Positions 8,288 to 61,408 of a DNA stretch of 61,408 nt are shown in pieces. This stretch comes from an uncultured virus (IMG/VR IMGVR_UViG_3300044729_003978) (Duplodnaviria > Heunggongvirae > Uroviricota > Caudoviricetes). Position numbers and translations under genes: made by a program. The stretch lies in IMG/VR virus record IMGVR_UViG_3300044729_003978; one strand, 5' to 3'. Within the stretch, counting starts at the first letter, position 1, and each line of letters opens with the position of its first letter. The notes under the pieces were generated by a model. The model was not told the DNA's origin. It searched no databases and saw only the letters and a program-made list of their open reading frames with translations.

Positions 8288-8664
8288 TATTTGACTCTTA
8301 TATATTTTTTATATCTAGGAATAGTCTTAAAATCTTCTGAAGAGGAAGACATGTAGAAATCGCCCTCTCTAGTTAGGTTTCCTATTTTTACTTGCTCTTC
8401 GCATAAAACTACAGAGTAGAGTTCCTCTATTATATACTCGTCTGTTTTTGTGATTAGAATATTTTTATTTATAGAAAATTCTAAATCGCTATTTGCATAT
8501 TTGTGGCAAAGAGAGGCTAGCTCGCAAGCCTTCTTTTTTATGTCTTTTTCTAAGACGTTTTCGTATATATATGTATCTAATTCAAGACCAGCATAAAATG
8601 CCGAGTACAGCTTGAGCAATTCAACTTTGTTTTTCATTATATATTTTTCTGCGCTGATTGCCAT
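8287..8664 (-). CDS. hypothetical protein
   Basis: ORF preceded by GTGTAT-N8-ATG. Confidence 0.55.
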   Translation of the reverse strand: MAISAEKYIMKNKVELLKLYSAFYAGLELDTYIYENVLEKDIKKKACELASLCHKYANSDLEFSINKNILITKTDEYIIEELYSVVLCEEQVKIGNLTREGDFYMSSSSEDFKTIPRYKKYIRVK

Positions 8665-8677
8665 AAAAATATATACA

Positions 8678-9115
8678 CTATTCTATACCCGTAGAACCAA
8701 AGCCGCCATCAGCTCTTTCTGTTTTAGAAATCGATTCTACGATTATGATTTCAGCTCTTTCGTATTTAGAAAGAACGGCCTGAGCTATTCTATCTCCTGG
8801 TTTTATTATAAATTCTTTATCACCTATATTATAAAGTATTACCCCTATCTCTCCTCTATAATCAGAATCTATAGTACCTGGAGCATTCAGAACAAAAATA
8901 CCGCTTTTTGCGGCTAAACCGCTCCTTGATCTTATCTGTATTTCATGGCCGCTTGGTATTTCTAGTGAAAGATTTGTTTTTACCAAAGCTATTGATTTTG
9001 GCTGAACAATAATTTCTTCAGAAGAGCAAACGTCCATACCAGCAGATCCAACTGTTGAATATTTTGGTATTTGCTTTAGTTTTTTATCATCAACAAATTT
9101 AAGATTTACCTGCAT
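8678..9115 (-). CDS. dut: trimeric dUTPase
   Basis: AGMD, RSGLA, GTIDSDYRGE, RIAQ and RADGGFGSTG motifs. Confidence 0.97.
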   Translation of the reverse strand: MQVNLKFVDDKKLKQIPKYSTVGSAGMDVCSSEEIIVQPKSIALVKTNLSLEIPSGHEIQIRSRSGLAAKSGIFVLNAPGTIDSDYRGEIGVILYNIGDKEFIIKPGDRIAQAVLSKYERAEIIIVESISKTERADGGFGSTGIE

Positions 9116-12635: not shown

Positions 12636-13806
12636 TTATATAAACGATAACTAGGTTGTTCAAAGGTTTAGAAACTATTGGATTTCTGTGCTTAACTATT
12701 TTGAGTAGATCCGATATTGCTATTGATATCTCGCCCCAATCGGCATCGTCTATTGCTATTATAGTTCTGTGGTTGATTGTAGCTACGTTTATCATATCTC
12801 TGATTGTTGTTGTGTAGCTATGCCCGCCGTCTATGAAGACCATAACATTTTCGAGATTGGTTCCATTTACTTTACTAACCACGTTAGCTAGAGTTTTATT
12901 TGAATCGCCTTTAACAAGCGATACACGAGAATGATCTTCAATGCTGTTGGCTAGAAGCTCTGAAGCTTCTGTTATTGATAATGGCGGTTGTTCTGGAGGA
13001 ATCTCGTGAGGCGGAGCTTTCTCAAAAAGATCGAATAAATAAGCAGATTTGGGCATATGGAGCTTCATTAAGTTTATAGCTGTATTCAGTCTGAAGCATC
13101 CTATCTCTAAGTAACAGTCTGGCTGATTGGCAAGATAAACATCTCTAAGCGCTTCGAATTTTCCACCAATTAAAATATTGTTGGATAAATCGGTCTCTTT
13201 TTCTTTAGTATAATTTTTAAAAAGCATATCCTTTTGTACCGTTTGTCCTTGAAATTTATTTTCTCCATCAATTGCAACAAAAACAAAACCAAGCTTGTTT
13301 ATTGCATAAATTATTTCACTTGAATTTGCTGAGCCTTTGTTATATTCTACAACTGGCGTTTCTAGCAAAATCCACTTTGCTTTTTTGATTGTTTTTTCAC
13401 CACCAATTATAATTGGAAGCTCAGATCCTTGAGTGTCTATCTTGATAAAATCGTATTCTGCATCTCCAATTAAATCATCAAGCTTATATGTTTTTATCTT
13501 AGAGATATTTACGTTTCCGTCTTTGTAGAAAGCTGTTTGTTCTCTGAAGAATGACGCGCCCTGGCATGTTGGTTCGCTTTTGTTAACGAAAAATTCTTTT
13601 TCAGAAGAATCAGAACCAAGAGCAGCTATTAGGTAGCTATCAGCTCTTTTTTTTAATTCTAATTCGCAGGCTGGATTCGCTTCTATGGAAAGGATGTTTG
13701 CCTTCGGATTTATATTTTTGAAAAGGGTAGCCGACTGCCCTATATTGGCCCCGATATCCAAGATGCTCTTTGACTGCTGTATTGCGCGCTTAGTTATATT
13801 ATTCAT
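12616..13806 (-). CDS. two-domain SAM methyltransferase (FkbM-like + Methyltransf_24-like)
   Basis: LDIGANIG and IKIDTQGSE in the N-half; LEIG, GDS, FIDGGHSY and IDD in the C-half. Confidence 0.85.
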   Translation of the reverse strand: MNNITKRAIQQSKSILDIGANIGQSATLFKNINPKANILSIEANPACELELKKRADSYLIAALGSDSSEKEFFVNKSEPTCQGASFFREQTAFYKDGNVNISKIKTYKLDDLIGDAEYDFIKIDTQGSELPIIIGGEKTIKKAKWILLETPVVEYNKGSANSSEIIYAINKLGFVFVAIDGENKFQGQTVQKDMLFKNYTKEKETDLSNNILIGGKFEALRDVYLANQPDCYLEIGCFRLNTAINLMKLHMPKSAYLFDLFEKAPPHEIPPEQPPLSITEASELLANSIEDHSRVSLVKGDSNKTLANVVSKVNGTNLENVMVFIDGGHSYTTTIRDMINVATINHRTIIAIDDADWGEISIAISDLLKIVKHRNPIVSKPLNNLVIVYINENKTN

Positions 13807-31439: not shown

Positions 31440-31976
31440 CTAAGTTTCAAGTTTGGCACAGTAATCATACATAGCAATTGCACTTGCGCAAGCCACATTC
31501 AAACTCCTCACACTGCCAAATTGAGGAATATAAACTATATCAGAACAGGCACTTATAATATTTTGGTCTAGACCAATTTGTTCTTGGCCAAACGCCATTA
31601 CAAAATGCTCTTTTGGCCACTGATATTTTTTAATGCTTACTGCGTTAGAAACATTATCTATTCCGACTATTTTAGAGCCAGAAAAGTATTTCAGCATTTC
31701 TTCTAGCGAATCTTCTTTAAAATGCTTTACGTGAATATATTTATGAGTTCCGACAGTGCCGCGCTTATCATACTGTTTTGAACCCCAAATCACAACTTCT
31801 TTAGGAAGAAAGGCCCCAGTGTTTCTTATGACGCTGCTTATGTTAAAGTCTTGTCCTAAATTGCAGCACAACACAGAGAAATTATGTCTCTTAGTGTCTA
31901 GATCAGCGATAATTGCTTCATGTTTCCAGTACCAATAATGATCTATGATATTTCTAGTTTCTTTAAGTGTATTCAT
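31440..31976 (-). CDS. SpoU/TrmH-family RNA 2'-O-methyltransferase
   Basis: NISSVIRN, FGQEQIGL and IPQFGSVRSLNVACA SPOUT motifs. Confidence 0.9.
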   Translation of the reverse strand: MNTLKETRNIIDHYWYWKHEAIIADLDTKRHNFSVLCCNLGQDFNISSVIRNTGAFLPKEVVIWGSKQYDKRGTVGTHKYIHVKHFKEDSLEEMLKYFSGSKIVGIDNVSNAVSIKKYQWPKEHFVMAFGQEQIGLDQNIISACSDIVYIPQFGSVRSLNVACASAIAMYDYCAKLET

Positions 31977-31980
31977 TTTC

Positions 31981-32670
31981 GTGCCTAAGCTAAATGTAAA
32001 TATTCCTCACTTCTACTGCCTCCTTAGAAAGCAACATTTATACGGAGGTTTAGATTATGTTGGAGAGTTCGAAAAGGTCTGTGTTTTTTCTGCACAATCC
32101 AACGCTGGGAAAGCGCTTCTTTTTAATGTTATGTTGGACAATGGAACTCTTCGTAGCAGGGTTCCTATTCACATGCTAGCCTCTTGTGATGACGCAGATG
32201 AAATACCTTTGGATTTCCTGCAACTTTGGGACTGCTATAGTGAAAATGTCACAGTTATTGAATACGAATATCTTTCGGAGATGAGATGCAAGATCGTATT
32301 TAAAGACGGGTCTGAGCATTGGGGTTCTTACATGATGACTTTTGATTGGTATAGAAACTCTTTTTCAGATGAGCCTACACAGTACAAGTGCTTGCATATG
32401 ATTGAGTTGGACAACGGTTGCTATACACTACAGCCAAATAATAGAATATTCTGGAGAGACATGTCTTTCACGACAAAGCCTTTTCCAGAAAAGCCAGATT
32501 ACAAGGTTGATACAAAAGTATATAAAACAGAAAGCGTCAGCGACAGATGGGTTATATCTGGAGAAGATTCTAGCTATTACTATAAAATAGAAAAGGCCGA
32601 AGGGGTTAATGACTCCGTGGACTTTGACGATCCTAAGGGTCCACCCGATAATCGGCCTTCGGCTATTTGA
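31981..32670 (+). CDS. conserved phage hypothetical protein (lone plus-strand gene)
   Basis: LNVNIP..., LQLWDC..., LDNG...LQPNNRI family pattern; GTG start preceded by GTGTAT-N8. Confidence 0.75.
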   Translation: MPKLNVNIPHFYCLLRKQHLYGGLDYVGEFEKVCVFSAQSNAGKALLFNVMLDNGTLRSRVPIHMLASCDDADEIPLDFLQLWDCYSENVTVIEYEYLSEMRCKIVFKDGSEHWGSYMMTFDWYRNSFSDEPTQYKCLHMIELDNGCYTLQPNNRIFWRDMSFTTKPFPEKPDYKVDTKVYKTESVSDRWVISGEDSSYYYKIEKAEGVNDSVDFDDPKGPPDNRPSAI

Positions 32671-44390: not shown

Positions 44391-46553
44391 TCAATTTTCA
44401 ATCTTATTCACATAATCAATCATTGAGACGATTGCTTGATCTCTATCTTGTCTAGTTGCTGCTGAAAGATACTGAAGTAGTGGATATTTAGACCTGAACT
44501 CACTGATGATCTTATCAAATTCGTCCCTGTGTGTCTTGTTGATCTTATCCCTGTCGATTTTTGCAAATTCAGAAATGCATTCGATATGACTGAATTCGCT
44601 ATTTACCGAGATATTTAGAGTCTTAATCTTTCTGATGAACTTCTCAAATGTTCCGCTAGGAATCTTGTTCACGTCAATCTGGTCAATGCAAGAAGAAAGA
44701 AGCGGGCATACAGACCATGCATTGCAATCCGCGATTGAATACCTACCGAAGATACTTGAGATAGCAGATGAAACCTTTGGGTGTGTAATAACCTCGTTAT
44801 TTATCCACTGAGTTATCGAGATTCCATTCTTTGCCTTCTCAACATCAGAAACCTTTATGCCATAGAAATCTGGCATATTAATTCCAAAATACTGCAGAGA
44901 AGACCTAAGTTTTGCAATGTTGTCGATGTTCCTTTCGTGGCCATTGATGAAAGGCTTGAATTTGTTTATCTCAATGTATACAAATTCTTGAGAAGATGGG
45001 ATATAACAAGATTCCCAGTTATTCTTCTGAACACCCCAGTTAGTTACCTTGTTGGAAATCTTGAACACTGGAATACTTCCACGGCTAGCTCTTTGTGTTT
45101 GCTTCCTTTCTACCTTTTCCCTCTTAAGTTCGTATGTTGAGATTAGCTTAAGATAACTCTTTGGGAAGTCGTTCTTATCAAAGAACTGAGATCCGTCAAC
45201 AGTTTGCCCGTCCGATGTCTTTGTTTCAGTTAGTTTGAAAAGATAGAATGTCCTGCCAGGATTCTTCCTGGCCATGTCAGACATCTTCAAGATGCAATTC
45301 TTTGAGTCATCGACAAGCCAAAAACAATCTTGCTTGAGACAATCTTCTGTGATCCGAATATTGGCAACATGTGTTGACCTGTGCGTCTTAGAGCCTGTAT
45401 GAACAAACTCATCTACGGCTAGACCAGTAAAATCTGTATTAATGAAGTGGTTTAGATTCTTCTTACCTCTCCAAGAAATTGAGTTCCTGATCTCGCCCCA
45501 ATTACCAGCCCTTGTAAATCCGTCAACCTTTGATACGGCGATTCTAGCCTTAATTGCATCTTCTGCTAAAGAAACTTCGGAGTTGATCTTATCAATTAGC
45601 TCATCAAAGTATTTCCTTGCCTTATCCTTGATTGCCTTGACTGTAATGCTGTTGTACTCAAGCTCCTCTCTAGACGCTGCGATTGATAGTTCGCCAATAT
45701 CAAAGTCAATCTCTACAAGTCCGCTGATAAACTTGTATTCCTTAGACATGTCTTTAGCCCAATAATCCTTGATTTCAGGAAAAACTAGGCTTGTGTCGAT
45801 TGGGTATCCAATGTTTCCCATTACGGCCACAGCATTCTTGTAGCCGTTTACAGAGGAATAATTGTAATAGGAAGATGCAGGATCCAAAACCCGCCAACCA
45901 TTTCCTGAAAACGCAATCTTTCTGTAGCTATCTTCGATATTTCCTCTTACTACAGGCTTTACCTTGAAGAATCTAGTTACATGTGCGATCTTCTTTGAAA
46001 ACACATCCACATCGTTTGACTTTACGGGAATGCAGATTTCAATACCAGGTTCTTCGCTAGTAGAAGTCTCAGAGATCTTCGCGATAGAGCCTAGTCTGCT
46101 TTCATCAATGTACGCAGAGTAGACTGTCTTCAGTCCATCGCAGAAAGATGTGATTGTGAATGTGTCACCGTAAGCAAAACCGCTCTTCGATCCTAGGCCA
46201 AGTTGACCAGTAAAAGCGTTTGAGTTTCGCTTTGTTGACCTACCATACATGCAGTAGATGCTTCTGACATCTTCTTCAGACAATCCCTTGCCGTAGTCCC
46301 TGACCTTGAACAAAGGATTCATCTTGTTAGGAACTGTGATTACGATTGGATCGTTTGAAAGCCCATTCTCAGTGTTTGCATCTGCCGCATTTGTGCAGTA
46401 CTCTCTTACTACAGCTAGTACCTTGTCTGAGTACAGCTTGTTACGCAAGATATCGAAGATGTAAACAAGGTCTTCGCTGCTTGCAATGCCAAACTTCGAC
46501 TCAGAGAAAGAGCCTACCTTGGTAACGACTGGTGAGATTGAGTTGTCTTTCAT
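44391..46553 (-). CDS. rIIA: rIIA-like protein (GHKL ATPase N-terminus)
   Basis: LYSDK..AVVREYCTNAADA, VRDYGKGL and STKR..GQLGLGSKS motifs. Confidence 0.88.
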   Translation of the reverse strand: MKDNSISPVVTKVGSFSESKFGIASSEDLVYIFDILRNKLYSDKVLAVVREYCTNAADANTENGLSNDPIVITVPNKMNPLFKVRDYGKGLSEEDVRSIYCMYGRSTKRNSNAFTGQLGLGSKSGFAYGDTFTITSFCDGLKTVYSAYIDESRLGSIAKISETSTSEEPGIEICIPVKSNDVDVFSKKIAHVTRFFKVKPVVRGNIEDSYRKIAFSGNGWRVLDPASSYYNYSSVNGYKNAVAVMGNIGYPIDTSLVFPEIKDYWAKDMSKEYKFISGLVEIDFDIGELSIAASREELEYNSITVKAIKDKARKYFDELIDKINSEVSLAEDAIKARIAVSKVDGFTRAGNWGEIRNSISWRGKKNLNHFINTDFTGLAVDEFVHTGSKTHRSTHVANIRITEDCLKQDCFWLVDDSKNCILKMSDMARKNPGRTFYLFKLTETKTSDGQTVDGSQFFDKNDFPKSYLKLISTYELKREKVERKQTQRASRGSIPVFKISNKVTNWGVQKNNWESCYIPSSQEFVYIEINKFKPFINGHERNIDNIAKLRSSLQYFGINMPDFYGIKVSDVEKAKNGISITQWINNEVITHPKVSSAISSIFGRYSIADCNAWSVCPLLSSCIDQIDVNKIPSGTFEKFIRKIKTLNISVNSEFSHIECISEFAKIDRDKINKTHRDEFDKIISEFRSKYPLLQYLSAATRQDRDQAIVSMIDYVNKIEN

Positions 46554-47215
46554 TGGTTCCTCAGTTTCTTAAGAGCAGACTCTTGAATCTGCCTTACTCT
46601 TTCCCTAGAAATGCCGCCAAGAATATTTTCTCCAATGTAATCTAGCGTTCTAGGCTCTGTGTTTATGCCAAACCTGAATCTTATAACCAATGTCTCTCTC
46701 TCGTTCAATCTTTCTAGATTTTCTAGCTCTAATTTTTCGCTTGCTTTTTGTTGTTGAATCTCAGCTTCCGAAAAACCAAAACCATGCATGGTCCAGCAGC
46801 TGTATAGGTTGTATCTTTCTGTGGCCCACTTTATATAGAGTAAAGATGAGTTAGGGCCTTTTCGCGCAAGTATTCTTCCTGCGGCAAAAAGAATCTGAAG
46901 CATTTGTATCTGCTTCGCCCTTGGTATTCTTACTGGATGCCTGTCACCAGACCACTTATTTGTGCAGCCTCTAATCCAGTGGTGAGCGTATGTAGAGAAT
47001 TTTCCCTTTTCTTTTTCAAATCTACAACTCGCTTCACAAAGGCCTAAAAACGCACACTGAAGTCTGTCTTCAATCTCTCTAGATCCGTTAAGCGCCCAAT
47101 CTGGTCTTGAGAATGCGTAGTATCTCGCTAACTTAACATTTGATCTAACTCTTTTAATCTGCTCCTTGCTTGACAGGATTCGAGTCTTCTGTTTTTGGCT
47201 TGTCTTTCTTTTCAT
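46550..47215 (-). CDS. RpoD/RpoS-like sigma factor
   Basis: GLCEA..RF....KFSTYAHHWIR, VRIP and RFG...TL..IG..GISRERVRQIQ..ALKKLR motifs. Confidence 0.88.
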   Translation of the reverse strand: MKRKTSQKQKTRILSSKEQIKRVRSNVKLARYYAFSRPDWALNGSREIEDRLQCAFLGLCEASCRFEKEKGKFSTYAHHWIRGCTNKWSGDRHPVRIPRAKQIQMLQILFAAGRILARKGPNSSLLYIKWATERYNLYSCWTMHGFGFSEAEIQQQKASEKLELENLERLNERETLVIRFRFGINTEPRTLDYIGENILGGISRERVRQIQESALKKLRNQ

Positions 47216-51908: not shown

Positions 51909-52396
51909 ATCTCCTGTTCTGCTGGGATTCCCCGTTTCTGGGCATCGAACTTGAAAACGAAAGACCCTGGAGAAACTTCAATCTTCTTCATATAGAAGAA
52001 AACAGTTCTTTGGAATCTAGGACTTACATGCTCAAAGAAACTGCCTAGAATAGCCATGTAAGTAGTCTCAGAAACACCCTCTGGACTCATCAGAATTGAG
52101 AAAACAAACTGCTCAAGTCTTGACTGTCTCATAACGACATTCGGTTCTTCTGATACATCCCAAAGGTACATCTGACCTGCTACATCAGGGATTGCTAGTT
52201 CTGACATTTGGTTGGTTTTGTTGTCGGGGTTCATATCCCCAATTTTAGCAGGTCTTTTCTTATTCTTTTGTTTAGAGTGGACGGCTGGCGGACTTTTGTC
52301 AACTTCGCCAACCTGATCCATGTCGGTGATCGCGTCCATACAAAACCTCGTTTTCAGCCCAAAAATGCGGCTAAAAGTCCGATTATTGATCCCCAA
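51899..52396 (-). CDS. hypothetical protein (start uncertain)
   Basis: open frame abutting the downstream gene. Confidence 0.45.
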   Translation of the reverse strand: MGINNRTFSRIFGLKTRFCMDAITDMDQVGEVDKSPPAVHSKQKNKKRPAKIGDMNPDNKTNQMSELAIPDVAGQMYLWDVSEEPNVVMRQSRLEQFVFSILMSPEGVSETTYMAILGSFFEHVSPRFQRTVFFYMKKIEVSPGSFVFKFDAQKRGIPAEQEIWS

Positions 52397-52627
52397 AACA
52401 CAAAATAAGCCCTCGCCCTCCCTCCCAAACTACCCCATATACATATAAGAGTATATAGTAGTAGTATAGGGAGAGAGAGGAGGAGTATTGGTCTGGGGAG
52501 TTTCTTGAAGTTGGAACAAAAATCCTCACAGAAATCCACTATGGTTTTCTTTGGTTTTCTATGGTTTCCCATAGCACTACATCCAATTCTACCCATAGAG
52601 CCTGTGGGTTTTTATGGTTTTACTTGG

Positions 52628-53095
52628 TCAGGGTTCGTTGTCGCCAGAACCCCTATCAGGGTAGTTGACACACTTTCCCTGGTGGTTGATGTTATCCCAG
52701 TTGTGATCTCCTCTATAGAAGCCACTTAGAGAAACGATTCCAGTGTAGCCCCTATAACCCTCAAAACGCCCCTTAAGGTACGAAGTAATATGACTGGCTA
52801 GAAGCACAGCCTCCTTATCTTGAGCGTTGTCATTGAAAGTCGGAAACTCTACGCGCAAATGCTGAACATTCCTGTCCCAACCGTCATCTTCAGATGTCAT
52901 CTGCGAAACATCAATCTTGACAAATACGTCTTCGATCTTCCCTTTGTACGATGGAAGCAGTTCCTTGAACTGCGTGTAAGCTTCTTCAGGAGACTTTGCC
53001 CAAAAACAAACTTCCCCAATCGCACCACTAGAGGATGAATATCGGAACTTGAAGAACATTAGCTCGTTTGATTTTTCGGTTTTAACGCTTGACAT
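52628..53095 (-). CDS. hypothetical protein
   Basis: AAGGAG SD before MSSVK. Confidence 0.55.
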   Translation of the reverse strand: MSSVKTEKSNELMFFKFRYSSSSGAIGEVCFWAKSPEEAYTQFKELLPSYKGKIEDVFVKIDVSQMTSEDDGWDRNVQHLRVEFPTFNDNAQDKEAVLLASHITSYLKGRFEGYRGYTGIVSLSGFYRGDHNWDNINHQGKCVNYPDRGSGDNEP

Positions 53096-53120
53096 TTTGA
53101 CTCCTTGCGGACTTTCGGTT

Positions 53121-53573
53121 TTAAACCTTGGATTCCACTTCGAACTCGACAGAAAAGAACTTGTCGTTAGCCTCGACAATCGAAAGCTTTGTAACGACAC
53201 CTAGTTTCATGAAATCTTCACCCACAGAGACAAACGGGCCTCCCTCTGGGTCAAAAAATGATGTCCAACCGTCATTGTCTACGCCAGCCCTAGAAGAGAT
53301 GGCGTTACCAGACATCGAGTAGAGACCAGGCTTCTCTTTCCTTATGATTCTCTCCTGTCCGTATCGGGAAAGAACCCTAAACGAATCGCTGTCTGACTTG
53401 GGCTTCGAAGTGAAGTCCTTTTTGAGTTCCCAGACAGAAAGAACCTGGTAGTTAGGCAGCTTTGCCCGCTCCATGTTTGTCTTCAGCATTGCGACAGCCT
53501 CGATGTATGAGCCTGCCGAGAATGTTTCGTGAAGATCGTCACCGTCGAGATTGTAAACAACTAGGTAGTTCAT
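53121..53573 (-). CDS. hypothetical protein
   Basis: DPEGGPFVSVG motif; ATGA coupling. Confidence 0.6.
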   Translation of the reverse strand: MNYLVVYNLDGDDLHETFSAGSYIEAVAMLKTNMERAKLPNYQVLSVWELKKDFTSKPKSDSDSFRVLSRYGQERIIRKEKPGLYSMSGNAISSRAGVDNDGWTSFFDPEGGPFVSVGEDFMKLGVVTKLSIVEANDKFFSVEFEVESKV

Positions 53574-53782
53574 CGTGCCCTTTCGTTGAGCCTGATAGCT
53601 CTGCGGAGATTTTCTTTGTTACTAGGATCTACGGCCACACACTCTCCGCCTGTCTTGTGACCGAAATCCATGAAGCCTACCACCCTCTGAACAGACGAAC
53701 ACTTGACACACTCCTCCGTATTCGGAAGAATCGCAAGCCTTTCTACGGGGATGGGTTGTGAGCATTTTGTGCAGCGCTTCAT
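53570..53782 (-). CDS. TraR/DksA-type C4 zinc-finger protein
   Basis: CTKCSQPIPVERLAILPNTEECVKC. Confidence 0.8.
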   Translation of the reverse strand: MKRCTKCSQPIPVERLAILPNTEECVKCSSVQRVVGFMDFGHKTGGECVAVDPSNKENLRRAIRLNERAR

Positions 53783-54031
53783 TCAGTCCCCCGAGTCAAC
53801 CTCATATACGAAGTGAACGGCGAATGTAGCGCCAATCGGCTGCACCTTCCACTTTGTATCTCCACAGTTTCCTCGTGAGCGGACTGCGTCAGTTGTTGAG
53901 AACTTTTCGGCCCAACTCTCCACATCGCCCCTAGAAGGGGCGGCAACAACGAAGATCTTGTTGTAAGAGTGGAAACAGTTTCCAAGTCTCTTGTGCGTCC
54001 ACCGTTCTGGTTCTGAGATTACACTTACCAT
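53783..54031 (-). CDS. hypothetical protein
   Basis: AAGGAG SD before MVSVISE. Confidence 0.5.
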   Translation of the reverse strand: MVSVISEPERWTHKRLGNCFHSYNKIFVVAAPSRGDVESWAEKFSTTDAVRSRGNCGDTKWKVQPIGATFAVHFVYEVDSGD

Positions 54032-54070
54032 GGCTTCTCCTTGTTTGGTGTGCGTGCAGGAAAAAATCAG

Positions 54071-54088
54071 GGGCGGTCGCATCGCCCC
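54071..54088 (-). terminator. terminator hairpin (identical copy at 43433..43450)
   Basis: hairpin followed by CTGATTTTTT on the minus strand. Confidence 0.65.
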
Positions 54089-54109
54089 ACTTGTATGTTC
54101 AGCTATTGA

Positions 54110-54535
54110 TTAGCTGATGTGACCAGACTTCTTGAGAGCAGCAGTGTTGCGCTCGATGGCGCCCTTCTTGCTACCCGGGGCGAAGACCTCAGCGACAGCG
54201 TCGTCGCGGTGGATTCCTCCTTCGCCAGTCGTGCCGCGCGGGATGGAGCGCAGCGCGTTAGCGCGCTCCTCGATACGGTCGAGTCCAGCGAGAACTGCCG
54301 CCTTTGCGGACTCGATCATCACATGGAGCTGCTCCTTCGTCATTCCGCCGTTGAGAAGAGCCTCACCGAGCTTCTTGTTCAGGTCCGTCACGGCCTTGCT
54401 CGCAGCAGAGCGGTCGTTGCGGTGGCCCATGACAGTCTCGGTGATTGCCTTGGCCTGCTTCTTCGAAGCGTTTCCGATGCTGGCATCAACGGTGGTGGTG
54501 GCGACGGTCTCGACGGCGTTGTTGGTGTTGGACAT
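54110..54535 (-). CDS. Ala-rich hypothetical protein (paralog of 57354..57794)
   Basis: GTTGEGGIHRDD..EVF...ERNT.AL..SG.I; GC-rich codon usage. Confidence 0.75.
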   Translation of the reverse strand: MSNTNNAVETVATTTVDASIGNASKKQAKAITETVMGHRNDRSAASKAVTDLNKKLGEALLNGGMTKEQLHVMIESAKAAVLAGLDRIEERANALRSIPRGTTGEGGIHRDDAVAEVFAPGSKKGAIERNTAALKKSGHIS

Positions 54536-54625
54536 TTGATTTTCCTTTTCTGTCATTGCGAAAGTTTGAACGATGATCTTATATGTTGTGATCTTATCAG
54601 TTTTCAATCTTATTGTGACAGCGTG

Positions 54626-54916
54626 TTACGAGACCTTGAAGGTCTCGCCGTGGATGGTGACTTCCTGGATCGTGTCTGCGTTGATCATGCGGTAACCATT
54701 GTTCTGCATGTCGTAGACAGAGATCAGCCTGTGTTCCTCTGGGTCGAACTTGAGTTCGCCACCAGTGAGTCCCTTGAGAACTCGCCCCCGACAGTTCATG
54801 ACACGGAACTCTCCCGTTGTGCGCTTGTAAAAACGTACAGTGAAGATTCTGCCAGAACCCTTCGCGGCATTGATCTTGGCAACAGCCTCTTGGCGACTAA
54901 TGATCTTCTCACTCAC
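54626..54916 (-). CDS. WYL-like/SH3-fold phage protein
   Basis: IFTVRFYKRTTGEFRVMNCR...VYDMQNNGYRMIN. Confidence 0.7.
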   Translation of the reverse strand: MSEKIISRQEAVAKINAAKGSGRIFTVRFYKRTTGEFRVMNCRGRVLKGLTGGELKFDPEEHRLISVYDMQNNGYRMINADTIQEVTIHGETFKVS

Positions 54917-55215
54917 AGGATTCCGTCCTTTCTAAGATCGTCAAGGATTGCATCAGCGGCCTGTTCGGGAGGCAACGCTTCTACAACACGAATGTCGTAC
55001 TCGATGTTTTGAAGCTCATTCAGCATGCTTTCTTTATCAGAAAGAACGCCGTGGAGCTTTGTGCCTTTCGCTAGTGACTGCCTTACAGACAATAGCACAC
55101 TAACAGTTTCATCTAGTGTCATCGAACTCCTGCCAGGAGGCATAGACTTCCTAAGAAGGTTGAGGTAACACCAAACACTGTCAAGTAGCCGAATGTTCTT
55201 GATGTTGTCTTCCAT
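54913..55215 (-). CDS. hypothetical protein
   Basis: GGGAG SD; coupling. Confidence 0.55.
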   Translation of the reverse strand: MEDNIKNIRLLDSVWCYLNLLRKSMPPGRSSMTLDETVSVLLSVRQSLAKGTKLHGVLSDKESMLNELQNIEYDIRVVEALPPEQAADAILDDLRKDGIL

Positions 55216-55218
55216 GTT

Positions 55219-55548
55219 TTACTCCCTATGGCTGTGGAGCGACCACTCGCGCTCCTTGAGGATCTTGTCGTTGAGCATCGAGTCAATCGTGAACGGATTG
55301 GTCCTATGCCCATGTCTGGTGCAATATGCGTGAAGAATGATCTCCACATACATATCCTTGGGCAACCGAGTATTGCTGCGCTTGATTGCCCAAACGGCGA
55401 GCCTGAAATCTTCGTATGCTTCTGTCCAGGTTCCTGGCTCACTGAGAACCTCCGACAGCAGGCTGCAGGGCGTACCCACCCACTCACCGGGGTAGCGCTG
55501 TACTGGGGTCTTCCAATAGACCACCCTGAAAACCCTGAAATGTTGCAT
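55219..55548 (-). CDS. hypothetical protein
   Basis: tiles in the operon. Confidence 0.5.
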   Translation of the reverse strand: MQHFRVFRVVYWKTPVQRYPGEWVGTPCSLLSEVLSEPGTWTEAYEDFRLAVWAIKRSNTRLPKDMYVEIILHAYCTRHGHRTNPFTIDSMLNDKILKEREWSLHSHRE

Positions 55549-55567
55549 GTCTTTTCCTATCTGGGGA

Positions 55568-55951
55568 TTATCCCCTCTTGAGAATCTGAGCCAGTCTCGC
55601 CCGAACCGAACGCTTCGTTTCGGCAGCGAGCTGCTCCTGAGTGGTTTGCCAATCCTGAGAATCGCCCCTGTACTCGATCCTGAAGAAACAGGGAATCCTG
55701 CTGCCGTACTGGTCTGGCGTCTCCTGAACCCTGTCCAACCAGTGGTCGAGCAACTCGTGGTACTCCTTACGAGTCTTGGGAGGAATTCCAGACTTGGGGA
55801 TGTCGTGCATCACCTCCCAACCAAGTGGGATAGGAAGATCCCAACCCGGGGCTGGCCCAGTATGTGCCATATCAACTCTCAAAGTGAACGTTTCCATACT
55901 ACTCCTTTGATAAAGCCGCACAATTGCGGACTTTGGGGGCAAACGGCCCAC
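55568..55951 (-). CDS. hypothetical protein (likely start METFT)
   Basis: AAGGAG SD before METFTL. Confidence 0.5.
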   Translation of the reverse strand: MGRLPPKSAIVRLYQRSSMETFTLRVDMAHTGPAPGWDLPIPLGWEVMHDIPKSGIPPKTRKEYHELLDHWLDRVQETPDQYGSRIPCFFRIEYRGDSQDWQTTQEQLAAETKRSVRARLAQILKRG

Positions 55952-56005
55952 CTATTAAACCCCTGGTCGCATCAGGGGGTCCAAGGTTTGTCGTCTACTT
56001 ACCTT

Positions 56006-56503
56006 TTACTTCTTGTTGATGATACCAGAAAGGATCTCGCGAGCCTCCGTGATGGTCCAACTTGAGTGGTGCTCGAACTCTCCTCCATTCAACAAAGTCC
56101 GAATGTCCCTGACAAGATCCTGCGTGCTACCGCCCTTGCACAGCCACTCATCGTGCAATTCTTGCAGATAGAGCAGAAACTTGTGATTCTTAGTCCCTAC
56201 CTCCTCATAGAGAGAGTTTAGAACACCAACCCAGGCATTGTCGTACTGCGATTTCTCAAACATCGCTTCCATCGACAGCCTGCAATTGAAGAAGTTGTCA
56301 AAGAGCCGATCTTTCGTCAGATCGGAAATTGAGACTTTTGCAACGTTATCTGCCCACTCTGGAGAGACCAGGCAGCCGATTGCGCACATGCCTCCGTCTT
56401 CTGTCTTGTAAACACAGACCCTTTTAGTACTATCCCAACCTGTCTTGACGTCCGGCTGAGAGAAGTGGTTCATGACACGTTCGAGAATTTCTCGTTCCTT
56501 CAT
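56006..56503 (-). CDS. conserved phage hypothetical protein
   Basis: CVY...G.MCAIGCL...LQELHD pattern; AAGGAG SD. Confidence 0.65.
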   Translation of the reverse strand: MKEREILERVMNHFSQPDVKTGWDSTKRVCVYKTEDGGMCAIGCLVSPEWADNVAKVSISDLTKDRLFDNFFNCRLSMEAMFEKSQYDNAWVGVLNSLYEEVGTKNHKFLLYLQELHDEWLCKGGSTQDLVRDIRTLLNGGEFEHHSSWTITEAREILSGIINKK

Positions 56504-56632
56504 TGTGTTCTCCTTCTGAGTGAATGACCAAGGAGTTGACCACGCTGGCAACAACTCCGCAATACTTGACCATCAGATCCCCGTTATCCAGGATGTTATT
56601 CAGCTCTCTTATGAGCCTCGCTTCTTCTCTTG

Positions 56633-57013
56633 TCACCGATCTCCCTTGCTCTGCTTGTAGGCGTACTCTGCAGGAACTGGGGGCGCGTATTCACAGGTCC
56701 TGTCGTTGGCCAACCAATTGCTAGCCAACTTCTTTGTGAAATCCTTGAGATCACAGGCGCCCCACCTAAGGATCAAAGAGATCCAATGCACGATCGTTTC
56801 TTTGTCGTTGGTGGAGAGATCATCTTTTGTCTCAAGACTCTCAAGTAGAGCGTTCACAAGAACAACGTTACTAGCCAGATCATTCAGAGCGTTGAGATTT
56901 CGGATCTTAGAAAGAGTCTGCTCGCAAATGAGACGCTCCTCCTTATCTTCAGACCTGCTCAAAACACGCTCGAAATGCGCAGTCAATTGACTGCATGTGA
57001 GGAAAGCTGCCAT
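56633..57013 (-). CDS. hypothetical protein
   Basis: GGAGG SD. Confidence 0.55.
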   Translation of the reverse strand: MAAFLTCSQLTAHFERVLSRSEDKEERLICEQTLSKIRNLNALNDLASNVVLVNALLESLETKDDLSTNDKETIVHWISLILRWGACDLKDFTKKLASNWLANDRTCEYAPPVPAEYAYKQSKGDR

Positions 57014-57021
57014 AATACCTC

Positions 57022-57258
57022 CTAATTGTCAGGAAATTCCTTCTTGTCAGACCGATGGATCACACGAGCCACCGGACAACGCTGACCCTGGGGGACGTCC
57101 CTACCAGAGTCCCTGTTGAAATCCTTACACCATCGCTCCATTGCCACGCGTGTCCGTGCTGGCCTGATGTAGCGGTTGCCGTCCGGTCCAGGTCGAAAGA
57201 TCTCAACGATCCAGTCCTCGTCGTTGGTGATCACCTGAACATTGCTATCACGGCTCAT
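57022..57258 (-). CDS. hypothetical protein
   Basis: AAGGAG SD before MSRDS. Confidence 0.5.
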   Translation of the reverse strand: MSRDSNVQVITNDEDWIVEIFRPGPDGNRYIRPARTRVAMERWCKDFNRDSGRDVPQGQRCPVARVIHRSDKKEFPDN

Positions 57259-57298
57259 TGCTAACTCCTTCTGGGCTTTGCCCAAACCAATAAAGCCA

Positions 57299-57323
57299 GT
57301 GGGGGGAGAACGCCTCCCCCCAC
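57299..57323 (-). terminator. GC hairpin after the 57354..57794 gene
   Basis: GTGGGGGGAG/CTCCCCCCAC inverted repeat. Confidence 0.55.
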
Positions 57324-57353
57324 CAGCCTTAGTAACGATGCGGACTTTGAGTG

Positions 57354-57794
57354 TTAGGCGATGCGGCCCGACGCACGCAGAGCGCGAGTGTTGCGCTCCA
57401 CCGCAGCCGACTTCTTGTCGGTGGTGAACACCTCAACCACCACGTCGTCGCGGTGAATGCCACCAGGGCCAGTGGTCCCACGACCAATCTTGGCCAGATC
57501 GAGCGCGCGCTGGAGCTGCGCCTCGATGACCTCTGCCGCCGCCTTCTTGGCGCGTTCGGCAGCCGCCTTCAGGCGGTGGGCGTCATTGTCGTCCATCAGG
57601 ACGCCTGCGCAGTCAGCAGCGAAGGTCGTCATGACCTTGCTCGGCTGCGACTTGCCCTTGCGGAACCCCATGGCGATGTCCGCGAGAGCAGCAGCCTGCT
57701 GCTTGGTCGCGTTCTTCGGCTTGGAGGCCGCCTGGGCAGCGCCCAGGTTGACGGAGGCGGTGGTGGTCTCGACGGTCACGTTGTTGTTGCTCAT
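57354..57794 (-). CDS. Ala-rich hypothetical protein (paralog of 54110..54535)
   Basis: GTTGPGGIHRDD..EVF...ERNT.AL..SG.I; AAGGAG SD. Confidence 0.75.
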   Translation of the reverse strand: MSNNNVTVETTTASVNLGAAQAASKPKNATKQQAAALADIAMGFRKGKSQPSKVMTTFAADCAGVLMDDNDAHRLKAAAERAKKAAAEVIEAQLQRALDLAKIGRGTTGPGGIHRDDVVVEVFTTDKKSAAVERNTRALRASGRIA

Positions 57795-58096
57795 GGCAAC
57801 TCCTTCTGGGTCTTTCCCAGACTTGGAACCCTATCAACAGATAACTCGCCCATCGAAATTGTGGGCAGACAGCTCCTGTTGCGTCGGGAATGGGAGCGCT
57901 ACCCTTTCGGGTAGCACCCCCTGTCACTTGTTCACCTCCTTGAAACCACGAGGAAGGGGCGGATACGCGCAGCAGATCTGCACGCCCTCCCCACCCCACG
58001 CCACCGCCTCACTCTTGACCTTCTCGAAATCACCCCTGAACTCGCGGAACTCTCCGCTGTTGAGGTCCTGACACAGGACGATGTGCATGTGGTTCC

Positions 58097-58369
58097 TCAC
58101 TTCTTCTGAGGGAAGACGATGATGCTCGTGTCGGCCTCGATGATGTCCCAAATCACGAAACCGACGATCTGGACGTCAGACAGGCCAATGATGTCACGAC
58201 CACAAGCGGCATCAGCGCAGGACATCGCCAACGCGGCGACGTCCTTCACGAAGTTGAGGTCGTGGTTCATCGCCCAGAAATCGCGCTGAGCGAGCGTGGA
58301 CCCCTCGACCTGATCTCCGTTGTTGCGAGCGATGTACCGACACATTCCGCGAACGATGTACTTCTTCAT
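58097..58369 (-). CDS. hypothetical protein
   Basis: AAGGAG SD. Confidence 0.55.
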   Translation of the reverse strand: MKKYIVRGMCRYIARNNGDQVEGSTLAQRDFWAMNHDLNFVKDVAALAMSCADAACGRDIIGLSDVQIVGFVIWDIIEADTSIIVFPQKK

Positions 58370-58384
58370 GACATCTCCTTTTTT

Positions 58385-58681
58385 TCAGAGTTCCCGAACC
58401 AGACGACCGAGATGCTTCTGCACGTCCTCCACGTTGGAGTACGACCACGGAAGCCGTCCCCTGCTGCCCATCCCGCTGAGGTAGGACTGGAGGAACGCCG
58501 ACCACTGCTCTTCGGCCTGGAGCATGTGGCGACGCTTGTGGTTCTCACGGCACTTCTCCCACAGGACGAGCTGCACGAGAGTCGCCTCAAGGGCGTTGCG
58601 CTGCGTTTCGCTCGTTCCAGCAGCCCTCAGCAGGTTGTTGATCCCGATCCTGACGCTGTTGATGCTCTTGCTTTCCTTCAT
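58385..58681 (-). CDS. hypothetical protein
   Basis: AAGGAG SD before MKESK. Confidence 0.55.
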   Translation of the reverse strand: MKESKSINSVRIGINNLLRAAGTSETQRNALEATLVQLVLWEKCRENHKRRHMLQAEEQWSAFLQSYLSGMGSRGRLPWSYSNVEDVQKHLGRLVREL

Positions 58682-58693
58682 GGTATCTCCTTG

Positions 58694-58734
58694 AAAAAAT
58701 GAAGGGCGGGCCGCCAACGAGACGACCCGCCCTT
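58694..58734 (-). terminator. intrinsic terminator
   Basis: AAGGGCGGGTCG...CGGCCCGCCCTT stem followed by CATTTTTT on the minus strand. Confidence 0.65.
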
Positions 58735-58751
58735 GGTGTGGACTTTGCGGT

Positions 58752-59129
58752 TTAGTAGTCGATGTCGATCATGTCTGGCAGCGGGATGTACCACGTATCA
58801 TCCATCAGCCAGTACACGGGGATGCTGTACTCAGACCAGATGAGAACAGCCTCGTCTGGAGCGAAGCACCAATCCTCCCTCTTGTACTCCGCGAGAGAGC
58901 ACAGACGACGCATGGTCAGATCATTGTTGCTGACCCAGATCTCCACATCATGTGGAGTTTCGAGTACAGCCCTGAACAGCTTCAGCTGCCCAATTTGCGG
59001 CAGAACAACCAGCTGCAGACGCTTCTTCAGCGTGTTCTTCTGGCCGAAGACCTCGCAGCCAGCAGTCTGAGACCACCGCCACTCAGCCATCACGGCCTTC
59101 CAGTACATCTTCGCGATCTGAAGTTTCAT
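58752..59129 (-). CDS. hypothetical protein
   Basis: ATGA coupling. Confidence 0.55.
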   Translation of the reverse strand: MKLQIAKMYWKAVMAEWRWSQTAGCEVFGQKNTLKKRLQLVVLPQIGQLKLFRAVLETPHDVEIWVSNNDLTMRRLCSLAEYKREDWCFAPDEAVLIWSEYSIPVYWLMDDTWYIPLPDMIDIDY

Positions 59130-59254
59130 CGGCGGTTCCCCCTCTTCAGCGCAGGGCGGTCGCCCTGCTCAGCCTCTTCTGCCCACGAACCCATCGTGAG
59201 CCACAGGCACAGGACGAATCCCGCGCCAATCATGATCAAACCGAACTCGAACAT
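59126..59254 (-). CDS. small single-TM protein
   Basis: AAGGAG SD; MFEFGLIMIGAGFVLCLWLTMG. Confidence 0.5.
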   Translation of the reverse strand: MFEFGLIMIGAGFVLCLWLTMGSWAEEAEQGDRPALKRGNRR

Positions 59255-59271
59255 AGCAGTCTCCTTGTCTT

Positions 59272-59345
59272 CCTGTGATCCGCACAGGTACGGTTGCCTC
59301 GGAATGAGGCGAATCCCACGAGCGCCCGTTAGGGCGCGGGTGGGG
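59272..59345 (-). promoter_or_regulatory. structured 5' leader, copy 1
   Basis: three hairpins; homologous to 59722..59794 with compensatory changes. Confidence 0.6.
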
Positions 59346-59351
59346 CTTTGA

Positions 59352-59699
59352 TCACTCGGCGTACATGTTGTTGATGCGGTCGAAGTCCTCCAGCAACATG
59401 CTCCTGACCACCGCAACCCGGCGGGTCAGGTACTGCAGGCGATCCCAAAGGAACGCCTTCGCCTGCTGCTCATCATGGAACCCCTTGACGAAACTGACGT
59501 TGATCGCCAGATCGTCAAAGCCGCTCTCCCACGCCGCCCACATTCCAGACACGGCGTGTCGGGACAGGTACAGAGATGCCGAACGCTCGACCTCTCCGTA
59601 GAGAGTAACATCGACATCGACCCGCTCCCCCTGGACTTTCCAGTCCGTAGGCTGGTCCTTGTGGTCATGAATGACCCCGTCGTTGATCCTACCGACCAT
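59352..59699 (-). CDS. hypothetical protein
   Basis: AAGGAG SD before MVGRIN. Confidence 0.55.
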   Translation of the reverse strand: MVGRINDGVIHDHKDQPTDWKVQGERVDVDVTLYGEVERSASLYLSRHAVSGMWAAWESGFDDLAINVSFVKGFHDEQQAKAFLWDRLQYLTRRVAVVRSMLLEDFDRINNMYAE

Positions 59700-59721
59700 C
59701 TGACACTCCTTTCTAGGAGTT

Positions 59722-59794
59722 CTCGTGAACTGCACGAGTCAGTGCGTCTCGGAATGAGACAAACCCGCTGCAACCAGTTAAGGCTACAGCGGGT
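59722..59794 (-). promoter_or_regulatory. structured 5' leader, copy 2
   Basis: three hairpins; homologous to 59272..59345. Confidence 0.6.
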
Positions 59795-59820
59795 GAGGAG
59801 TTTGAGGTTTAACCCAAGCG

Positions 59821-60348
59821 TTAGCTCAGGTCCATCAGCCAGTTGATGGTGACGATGAACGCGTCACCAACAATCTTGCCCGACACCTGACGGCGGTCGA
59901 TGTAGTTCTTCCGCCAATCCGTGATCTTTGCTGACCACGCAGCATCAATCAACTCGGCAGAAGTCGTCATCGCCGCAGGCACGGCAATAACAACCTCGAT
60001 GTCCTCGAACCCGCGCCCCGAGTAGTCCTGCCAGGACCGCTCTGAGACGCGCACCCATGCCGTGCAGCTGCGTCCATCGGCAAACCGCACCATCTCGTAA
60101 TCCCTCTGCATGCGGAGAAGGAGCAGCCCGTCCCGAACAGGGGGCAGATCGGGGCCGGTCACAGGCTCCCAATTCTCCATCCCGTCCGCCGTCACCGACT
60201 GGATCTCAGCCCAATCGGCGTCGTCCTTGAACTTCCGACGAGCCTCGTTCTCGTCGGCAGCCCACACTGGTTCCACACCGACCCCTTCGTCCTTCGCCAT
60301 CACATTGATGTACGTGATGGTGTACAGCTTGCGGTTCTTCCACTTCAT
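59821..60348 (-). CDS. hypothetical protein
   Basis: AGGT SD; GC-rich codon pattern. Confidence 0.6.
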   Translation of the reverse strand: MKWKNRKLYTITYINVMAKDEGVGVEPVWAADENEARRKFKDDADWAEIQSVTADGMENWEPVTGPDLPPVRDGLLLLRMQRDYEMVRFADGRSCTAWVRVSERSWQDYSGRGFEDIEVVIAVPAAMTTSAELIDAAWSAKITDWRKNYIDRRQVSGKIVGDAFIVTINWLMDLS

Positions 60349-60389
60349 GTCATTTTACCTTTCTGAGGACTAGAGTCCTCGTGCGGACT

Positions 60390-60935
60390 TTAGCGGACGG
60401 CGTTGCCGAGCCGTGCCGCCATTTCGCCGAATGCCTGCTGCAGAGAGATCTGCTGCAGGGTTGCGATGCGCCTACCTTCCGCGGTAGCCTCGCGCTGAGC
60501 CTCTGCGGCAGCCGACCGCAGAGCGTTGTTGAACTGCTTGGCGAGCAGCTCGCGCTGCTCAGTGTCCTTGCGCTTGGCTGCAGCTGCAACCTTGGCGGCC
60601 TTGCCGGGGCGCAGGTCGGCAGGCTTGGCGGGCTTGTTAGCCGCAACCATTGCCTTCCACCCCTTGGGGCGGCGGGTTCCGTCCAACCTGATACCCTGCT
60701 CGGGCTGAGTCACACGGTGACCCAGGCCGATGACCCGCCGCTCAAGCCCCACGGCGGGGATGCGGTTGCCGCCCACGCGGTCTCGCTCGAAGCCGTGGCT
60801 GTGGCCACGGACACCACCCGACTGCGCTCGCAGCCGGATGTTCATCTTCGGCATACGCGGCTGCCGAAGAACGCCGCTGTCGGTGATGTACGCTGTGCGT
60901 ACCTCACCTATGATCGTCGGATATCCGTTACTCAC
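60390..60935 (-). CDS. basic, Ala-rich hypothetical protein
   Basis: GGAGG SD; overlaps the upstream stop. Confidence 0.55.
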   Translation of the reverse strand: MSNGYPTIIGEVRTAYITDSGVLRQPRMPKMNIRLRAQSGGVRGHSHGFERDRVGGNRIPAVGLERRVIGLGHRVTQPEQGIRLDGTRRPKGWKAMVAANKPAKPADLRPGKAAKVAAAAKRKDTEQRELLAKQFNNALRSAAAEAQREATAEGRRIATLQQISLQQAFGEMAARLGNAVR

Positions 60936-61173
60936 GAATCACCTCCTGGATGACTTCACCCATCCCCTTCACCTGTCCGATGAAGTCTTCGAATTCTTGC
61001 TCGTCGAGCGTACCGCACATGTAGTTGTCCTCTCCATCCTCGCTAATCAGGTAGGAGAATACCTCGTATCCAACACCACCAGCGTGCCCCTCGCAGGGCT
61101 TGATAACAACCTTAAAAGTATCAACATCGATGATGTTGCCGACATTTGTCCGAACCGTCAACTTGCTGATCAT
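60928..61173 (-). CDS. hypothetical protein
   Basis: likely start MISKLTV. Confidence 0.5.
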   Translation of the reverse strand: MISKLTVRTNVGNIIDVDTFKVVIKPCEGHAGGVGYEVFSYLISEDGEDNYMCGTLDEQEFEDFIGQVKGMGEVIQEVIRE

Positions 61174-61408
61174 TTTGATCTGCCTTTCTGCGGACTTTCG
61201 ACCGCGGTTGAATGTCAAAGCCCCCACACAACCTTTCGGATGTGCAGGGGGAAAGCGCGAGCGGCGGATTTCTCCGCCGCCCGCGGGTTATGCGGTTTCG
61301 AGCATTACTCGGCGCTTGGCTTGCGCACGCTCACCTGAGAATCGTCCAGACTTACCCCACTCAGGGAGCGTAATTTCAGTGCAAGTCCCTTATCCGGCCA
61401 CGATGCGT

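Follow-up and report, generated by a model that had tools for sequence, protein, structure and literature searches.

The window, by which we mean the whole 61,408-nt stretch of DNA analysed here, is part of the genome of a large tailed phage, with genes for a primase, a DnaB-like helicase, a UvsX-like recombinase, ribonucleotide reductase, rIIA/rIIB and tail-fibre proteins. The runs listed with the stretch are lake or freshwater metagenomes without exception (24 of 24); eight of them are possible sources of it, and the run contigs compared below come from four of the others. No cultured phage matches the window at the DNA level, its helicase stands at only about 30% against those of cultured phages, and a sigma-70-family protein encoded in it has no match among cultured phages. 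Four tRNAs are found in the window by Rfam at the gathering score. The GC content, about 0.38 (0.35–0.40) over positions 1–50,000, rises to 0.57 toward the right end (52,000–61,408), a rise that may point to a GC-rich host. This right end is a region of small minus-strand ORFans, with weak Pfam matches in 2 of 20, and the name “early genes” that the original prediction gave to them we infer only from the GC-rich run of small ORFans itself. Two products encoded here, a WYL_2 Sm-like protein (54626–54916) and a DksA/TraR-type zinc finger (53570–53782), both below the Pfam cut-off, are candidate regulators by sequence. A paralogous ORFan pair (57354–57794 and 54110–54535; about 41% identity) shares a GTTG.GGI.RDD motif and is kept in both of the phage groups described below.

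Within the ORFan region, two successive intergenic regions of the minus strand carry the same structured element, and its parts are given in Table 1 (the labels H1–H3, copy A/B and “box” were coined in this analysis). Each copy sits past a stop codon and ahead of the following ribosome-binding site, and it folds into a long first hairpin, H1, of 12 bp with a 6-nt loop; after a brief TT linker come the hairpin H2, 7 nt and the hairpin H3. The original prediction had described both the duplication and the three hairpins, and these hold up well: the three-hairpin fold has a z of −6.1 in copy A and −4.7 in copy B, and 0 of 200 shuffles were equally stable. Both copies recur with zero differences in contigs from public lake runs (X13 record 5, X23 record 22 and X18 record 15). 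The Shine-Dalgarno sequence (SD) of one copy had been thought to be sequestered, and the folding model agrees for copy A, where the SD hairpin is predicted to be closed (unpaired probability at most 0.1 at 5 of the 6 SD bases); this hairpin is retained with 5 bp in the close relatives L014 and L015, and the SD, GGAG or GGAT, is at least partly paired in all six related cassettes that were folded. For the 115-aa ORF between the copies, we found no Pfam or PHROGs family and no IMG/VR locus, and its ESM matches are below 0.9.

Table 1. Coordinates of the element, its neighbours and related features (window positions unless a relative is named)
Feature	Position	Strand	Details
Copy A	59793-59722	-	intergenic
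Copy A H1	59764..59793	-	12-bp stem, loop TTAACT (Y-U-R-A start), then TTT
Copy A H2	59746..59760	-	5-bp stem, ATTCC loop
Copy A H3	59722..59738	-	6-bp stem (GTG...CAC core), 5-nt loop; preceded by 7-nt linker 59745-59739
Copy A SD-sequestering hairpin	59705..59720	-	SD AAGGAG at 59711-59706
Box of copy A	59794..59803	-	ends directly before H1
Copy B	59344-59272	-	next intergenic region
Copy B H1	59315..59344	-	12-bp stem with 2x2 internal loop, loop CTAACG, then ATTC
Copy B H2	59296..59310	-	5-bp stem, ATTCC loop
Copy B H3	59272..59288	-	6-bp stem, 5-nt loop; preceded by 7-nt linker 59295-59289
Copy B SD	59261..59266	-	pairing incomplete in the model
175-aa ORFan, upstream of copy A	59821..60348	-	remains with copy A in the two close relatives (37% and 76% identity)
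115-aa ORFan, downstream of copy A	59352..59699	-	basis includes 4 homologues
42-aa ORF, downstream of copy B	59126..59254	-	N-terminal hydrophobic helix; Kyte-Doolittle 19-mer mean 2.07
Intergenic boxes	61198, 60391, 59803, 58746, 57348, 55934, 53115	-	also in L014, L015, L051, L071-L073
Sigma-70-family protein	46550-47215		regions 2 and 4
Second cassette type in relatives	L014 about 11995, 13070, 13392-13420; L015 about 11933, 12997, 13439-13467		
tRNA-Arg(TCT)	L071 6516-6589, L073 6533-6606, L150 1613-1686		no encoded CCA
H1-type hairpin	L072 1705-1732		same intergenic slot as the tRNA

How much of this structure has selection actually held in place? The two copies are identical at 45 of 72 bases, with one indel and a longest exact run of 11. 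Among the 46 paired positions 17 differ, and 21 of the 23 pairs are kept, 6 of them through a change on both sides; when 17 substitutions were placed at random, as many pairs were kept in 2 and in 61 of 150,000 trials (two transition rates). Aligned locally, A and B score 35, more than any of the 3,281 other tiles of the window does (maximum 26). The stems of H2 (GTCTC/GAGAC vs GCCTC/GAGGC, around a fixed ATTCC loop) and of H3 covary as originally described, on the single comparison of A with B; H1 covaries too and, as had been overlooked, aligns without a gap across its 12 bp and 6-nt loop. Adding sequence from two related IMG/VR contigs (L004 and L006) brings the pairs changed on both sides to seven, against at most one in slid controls, a count that has just three distinct sequences behind it. 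Neither the window nor G002–G006 holds a third full copy. We conclude that the cassette is a real, selected RNA element of narrow distribution.

Two details of the fold as first proposed have to be given up. The TAAC apex of H1 is not fixed, because both close relatives (2 of 2) have TGAT there, and the part held in common is Y-U-R-A. The linker ahead of H3 was also supposed to pair with the H3 loop in a covarying pseudoknot; an ungapped alignment gives no two-sided change at all, and copy B breaks three of the four pairs. A register shift of one base yields 3–4 pairs and leaves a last loop of 1 nt (A) or 2 nt (B), and 1–2 nt is too short for a loop that crosses the shallow groove. Spanning that groove is what the last loop of an H-type pseudoknot must do, as stated in the relevant part of PMC2853144.

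Relatives of the full element are few. Among 13 matches to our first IMG/VR pattern, 2 were real, and a second pattern, with 35 matches, led to the same two contigs; a pattern scan of GTDB gave none that was real out of 17, and the model, run on 61 other pattern loci, reached a best E of 0.062. Of 119 metagenome stretches, L051 is the sole relative, and it ends before copy A. The nearest virus record, G001, does not extend over this part of the window. L014 and L015 keep the upstream gene, the copy A cassette and the first codons of what follows, and copy B is absent from both. The gene downstream is, in both of these close relatives covering the site, an SLT/destabilase-like gene with a hydrophobic N-terminus, which takes the place of the 115-aa ORFan. 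The point of exchange at copy A falls past the start codon and outside the hairpins. L015 has an additional H1 ahead of another gene. Contigs from 4 of the 24 runs hold no junction at which the gene between the copies had been excised, a result that is silent on rare circles, since contigs drop rare variants. A reading of the element as attC-like was dropped because the TAAC/GTT flanks are missing in L014.

The element is one of several intergenic cassettes, each a box plus a hairpin, in a region where genes are swapped. The box, AAASTCCDCA, occurs eight times on the coding strand of 52–61.4 kb and never on the other (Markov mean 0.08, maximum 2 in 500); seven are intergenic, mostly shortly 3′ of a stop codon and ahead of a hairpin or an SD. 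The perfect box is confined to copy A, and copy B has only a degenerate one. The box is a candidate promoter or start site for the phage’s sigma factor or, alternatively, a candidate processing or protein site. It also sits directly before a tRNA, at times forms the arm of a hairpin and, in the complete genome G002, clusters in one region. A twister-P3 match at 61158–61211 (18 bits vs a cut-off of 39.9) reflects the box and was set aside. A second type of cassette, a box followed by a long GC hairpin with a CGTT-type apex, lies at 58734–58702 and has multiple copies in relatives, with different flanking genes.

A more distant group of phages takes the story beyond the close relatives. Three contigs of 122–125 kb were reached through alignment of the conserved paralogue pair (about 45% identity), and a pattern scan added a fourth; a pattern for the distant hairpin matched 85 stretches, and among the matches listed (at least 2 outer pairs, fold below −30 kcal/mol), 4 contigs have cassettes. 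These four share the box, a WYL_2-like gene (54–55%) and tandem cassettes before two adjacent genes. A scan with the WYL gene gave 17 loci, 13 of them more distant and without box or cassette (the model was run on 8 of the 13). Each distant cassette is made up, in order, of an opening element, a linker rich in U, a GTGG...CCAC hairpin resembling H3 and an SD hairpin. Cassette one opens with an 11-bp hairpin that has a TTRA loop; cassette two opens with a tRNA-Arg(TCT) in L071, L073 and L150 and with an H1-type hairpin in L072. Whether the slot holds the tRNA or the hairpin, the downstream hairpins are the same, and 5 nt separate the end of the helix from the next hairpin. This swap is seen in the distant group only.

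Are the hairpins of the two groups really the same thing? Taken together, the eight H1-type hairpins can pair in 85 of their 88 stem cells. Counted on the coding strand, there are 12 G-U combinations and no C-A, a wobble count that is partly built in, since pairing was a criterion by which several of the eight were chosen. Their closing C-G is invariant, the third pair is G-U in 6 of 8, the stem is 12 bp in four and 11 bp in the other four, and every loop begins with Y-U-R-A, a YUNR U-turn motif, with (A)TT at the foot in all eight. Copy B and the first cassette of L071 have a common flank, GAGTGATCA, as well as the outer stem. A model of the close group scores the distant H1s at E 0.04–0.7; a model of the distant group finds copy A as its best match in the window (E 0.022), misses copy B and the L014 copy and lets unrelated terminator-like hairpins reach E 5e-4. 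On these sequence comparisons, H1 homology across the groups has only moderate support. An origin of H1 from a D-arm is conceivable, given its TRGC start (compare tRNA positions 8–11), but MAFFT set the L072 loop over the T-arm instead. What the original prediction missed is that the element belongs to a family of intergenic cassettes in which H1 is the widely shared part and the ATTCC hairpin is limited to the close group. The search for homologues that it had called for is answered by the full form in two contigs and H1-type cassettes in four more, but not by any third full copy in the window.

The structure is established by covariation; what the cassette might do we infer, step by step. 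Maturation of a tRNA that lacks an encoded CCA needs a cleavage at its 3′ end. In the distant phages, a stable hairpin begins 5 nt past such a tRNA; therefore, if the tRNA is functional, the linker must be cut, and the message so freed starts with a hairpin. All eight H1s match RN-WUU at the foot, though its R and N belong to the stem and so short a motif turns up often; in the portion of PMC5222698 that treats it, RN-WUU is the core motif of RNase E. The RNase P of Escherichia coli is described, in the relevant part of PMC4919922, as accepting hairpins that mimic the acceptor plus T stem, helped by RCCA and a D/T contact. H1 has the helix of about 12 bp expected of such a minihelix, but not the 7-nt T-loop or the 3′ RCCA (its loop is a 6-nt YURA loop, and its 3′ side reads (A)TT). 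The exchange of tRNA and H1 in one slot, the RNase E-type foot and the tolerance of RNase P therefore lead us to favour, tentatively and at somewhat less than an even chance, the view that the cassette is punctuation at the RNA level in a polycistronic phage message, where it would cut, protect and damp translation.

The steps would be as follows. A host endonuclease, RNase E- or RNase Z-like, would cut the U-rich foot of H1, perhaps with a further, RNase P-like cut at its 5′ side. H1 would then guard the upstream message at its 3′ end, the downstream message would begin with H2 and H3 as a protective 5′ end, and translation of this second message would be damped by the SD hairpin. Standing in the slot of a tRNA, with the length of an acceptor-plus-T helix and a U-rich foot, H1 could direct the same cut as the tRNA would, and the cassettes could also provide short homology for gene exchange, as do the PeSLs discussed below. 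Protection alone does not explain the invariant loops, and the tRNA may have simply inserted or been lost, with no role shared with H1.

A bolder form of the same idea, which we regard as doubtful, is that H1 is a minimal tRNA mimic, an 11–12-bp helix with a U-turn loop that would recruit the host nucleases of tRNA processing, so that real and mimic tRNAs would interchangeably punctuate the early message. If it were true, the phage would make gene-sized mRNAs with ready protective 5′ hairpins, and swapped gene cassettes would be expressed as independent units. The hairpin-for-tRNA swap offers a direct test of a wider question: do some phage tRNA genes act as signals for mRNA processing as well as supplying codons? 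A precedent may lie in the C4 antisense precursor of phages P1 and P7 (cited in PMC4919922), which is reportedly an RNA processed by RNase P. It is a non-tRNA substrate with a phage helix of acceptor-plus-T length within a longer message, and tRNA punctuation in general resembles the present case in that the H1 slot is interchangeable with a tRNA gene. The element differs from both C4 and tRNA substrates in that it has no cloverleaf, closing stem or RCCA, and its loop is 6 nt; there is no Rfam match to C4 or tRNA at the element, and no target was found.

The other explanations partly overlap with the punctuation reading and with each other and are not fully exclusive. The one that survives best, unlikely though we think it, is that the cassette is a true composite of the PeSL type, in which H1 and its short U run would attenuate or stop upstream transcription and a promoter would overlap the hairpins, with a −35-like hexamer in the H1 loop and the −10 around the H2 loop; alternatively, the box would be a promoter for the phage’s own or an alternative host sigma. 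As described in the parts of PMC2839356 and PMC4122927 that concern them, the PeSLs of T4-type phages are, like the cassette, stem-loops repeated between genes, each leading into an SD and an ATG, within a hyperplastic stretch of small ORFans; genes are swapped beside cassettes that stay, and the breakpoints fall close to the SD/ATG. The stem-loop of a PeSL is often found between the promoter boxes or on top of them (PMC2839356, same part). The H1 loops look like TTGACA, a sigma-70-family protein is encoded in the window, and the box keeps to one strand, is largely intergenic and frequently stands immediately ahead of an SD, hairpin or tRNA; recognition at the DNA level would account for the invariant loops. 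Against all this, none of the eight H1 loops has a TAnnnT hexamer at 16–18 nt, the five sigma-70-like sites in 52–61.4 kb all lie off the coding strand, and both H1s fail a terminator scan on the U-tract, although the same scan picks 58734, 57331 and 54088. The loop-plus-CTCATT pattern is found nowhere else in the window, and copy A alone has the perfect box. Compared with the PeSLs as those parts of the two papers present them, the cassette lacks a sigma-70 −35/−10 pair and an AT-rich upstream tract, has three or four hairpins where a PeSL has one and shows conserved loops, RNA-type covariation and, in relatives, a tRNA in the same slot. The cassette is thus PeSL-like in genome layout but lacks the sigma-70 promoter by which PeSLs are defined; a promoter of another sigma type is possible.

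Somewhat less probable again is a translational operator, in which the ATTCC loop or the Y-U-R-A loop of H1 would be read by an antisense RNA, or by an RNA-binding protein of phage or host, that switches access to the SD; ATTCC and the SD may themselves pair, as a sterically open pseudoknot. The duplex of ATTCC loop and SD comes to −4.0 kcal/mol in copy A and −2.3 in copy B, with loop costs left out. Neither partner of such a duplex varies, which leaves no room for covariation, and in copy A the local SD hairpin is a competitor. The YUNR U-turn start of all eight H1 loops would suit an operator, as would the WYL_2 Sm-like protein, kept in both groups, and the strongly hydrophobic start of five of the nine downstream ORFs. 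Fast antisense pairing is what the YUNR motif serves according to the part of PMC6562991 devoted to it, and the hok/Sok leaders treated there resemble the cassette in their YUNR loop, structured leader and occluded SD and, for copy B, in the small membrane peptide encoded downstream. Unlike hok/Sok, the 52–61.4 kb region gave us no antisense promoter or trans partner: no plus-strand sigma-70-like promoter lies near the element, and the complement to either copy in the 52–61.4 kb message is at most 9–10 nt. The downstream genes, moreover, vary freely.

It is improbable, in our judgement, that the cassettes are modules for gene shuffling at the DNA level only or near-neutral remnants of duplication that template switching has kept palindromic. 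Compensatory change can be imitated by quasi-palindrome repair; genes are exchanged beside these and other cassettes, and the hairpin at 58732 has more copies in L014 and L015. Set against this are the divergence of A and B (alike at merely 45 of 72 bases, longest exact run 11), the retention of spacings, loops and wobble polarity and an exchange point at copy A that lies past the start codon, outside the hairpins.

The two remaining readings, both raised by the original prediction, are very improbable. A self-cleaving ribozyme with the linker-loop pseudoknot as its core would be in keeping with a small, structured element that has conserved unpaired bases and a conserved third-pair G-U in 6 of 8 H1s, but the pseudoknot fails, no Rfam ribozyme matches at the element, and three serial hairpins offer no conserved closing stem or multi-way junction. 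A single-stranded DNA hairpin promoter of the N4 type would place hairpins ahead of small, probably early genes, as here, but the wobble polarity favours the coding strand, and as DNA, the sense H1 is more stable than the template in 6 of 8, a count in which the copy B hairpin was taken one base out of place. The N4 promoter hairpin has a short stem and a 3-nt loop, whereas the stems here are 11–12 bp and the loops 6 nt; no ORF among those listed for 1–52 kb of the window, itself part of a genome, exceeds 720 aa, 52–61.4 kb has only small ORFs, and no gene for a virion RNA polymerase is among the ORFs of the window. What stands of that prediction is its first suggestion, an undescribed cis-acting RNA and possible processing site, with which covariation, coding-strand G-U pairs, the lack of an Rfam match and the swap of tRNA and H1 all agree.

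Does the motif have a name already? The Rfam scan that had been proposed matches no family to the element, whether at the gathering score or with E allowed up to 10 (9 weak matches in 57–61.4 kb, none on the element). The put antiterminator RNAs of HK022 are adjacent stem-loops in an early transcript, upstream of terminators. The cassette shares with put its adjacent stem-loops, a probably early transcript and a place upstream of terminator-like sites; unlike put, it has three stems, no Rfam match and an intergenic position that is not right behind a known promoter. Our literature search found no published description of the motif, which is apparently uncatalogued. In a catalogue of viral structured RNAs (PMC10690425), supplement files 3–6 hold no match; the larger files and zips, perhaps with alignments, lay outside the search, so absence from the catalogue as a whole is not established. 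That phages carry structured intergenic cassettes next to swappable genes is already a known theme, and what differs here is an RNA motif without an Rfam family and a swap with a tRNA. A portable cassette of 72 nt that sets both the ends of a message and its level of translation would help to explain how phages take up new genes.

The surroundings hold a few further structures. The end of the window (61230–61408) lies inside an apparent long, GC-rich and mostly non-coding region with many GAAA-capped hairpins, about 80% conserved in relatives (L014 about 8600–9740; L051 1–260), which is possibly a long structured leader or an origin. At 52380–52490, 3′ of a box-like site at 52503, there is a long imperfect palindrome with purine/pyrimidine skew, and L071 has a similar tract near 13500–13570. 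Far to the left, at 31945–32670, a plus-strand ORF amid mostly minus-strand genes matches a PHROG labelled ferredoxin, in the auxiliary metabolic gene category.
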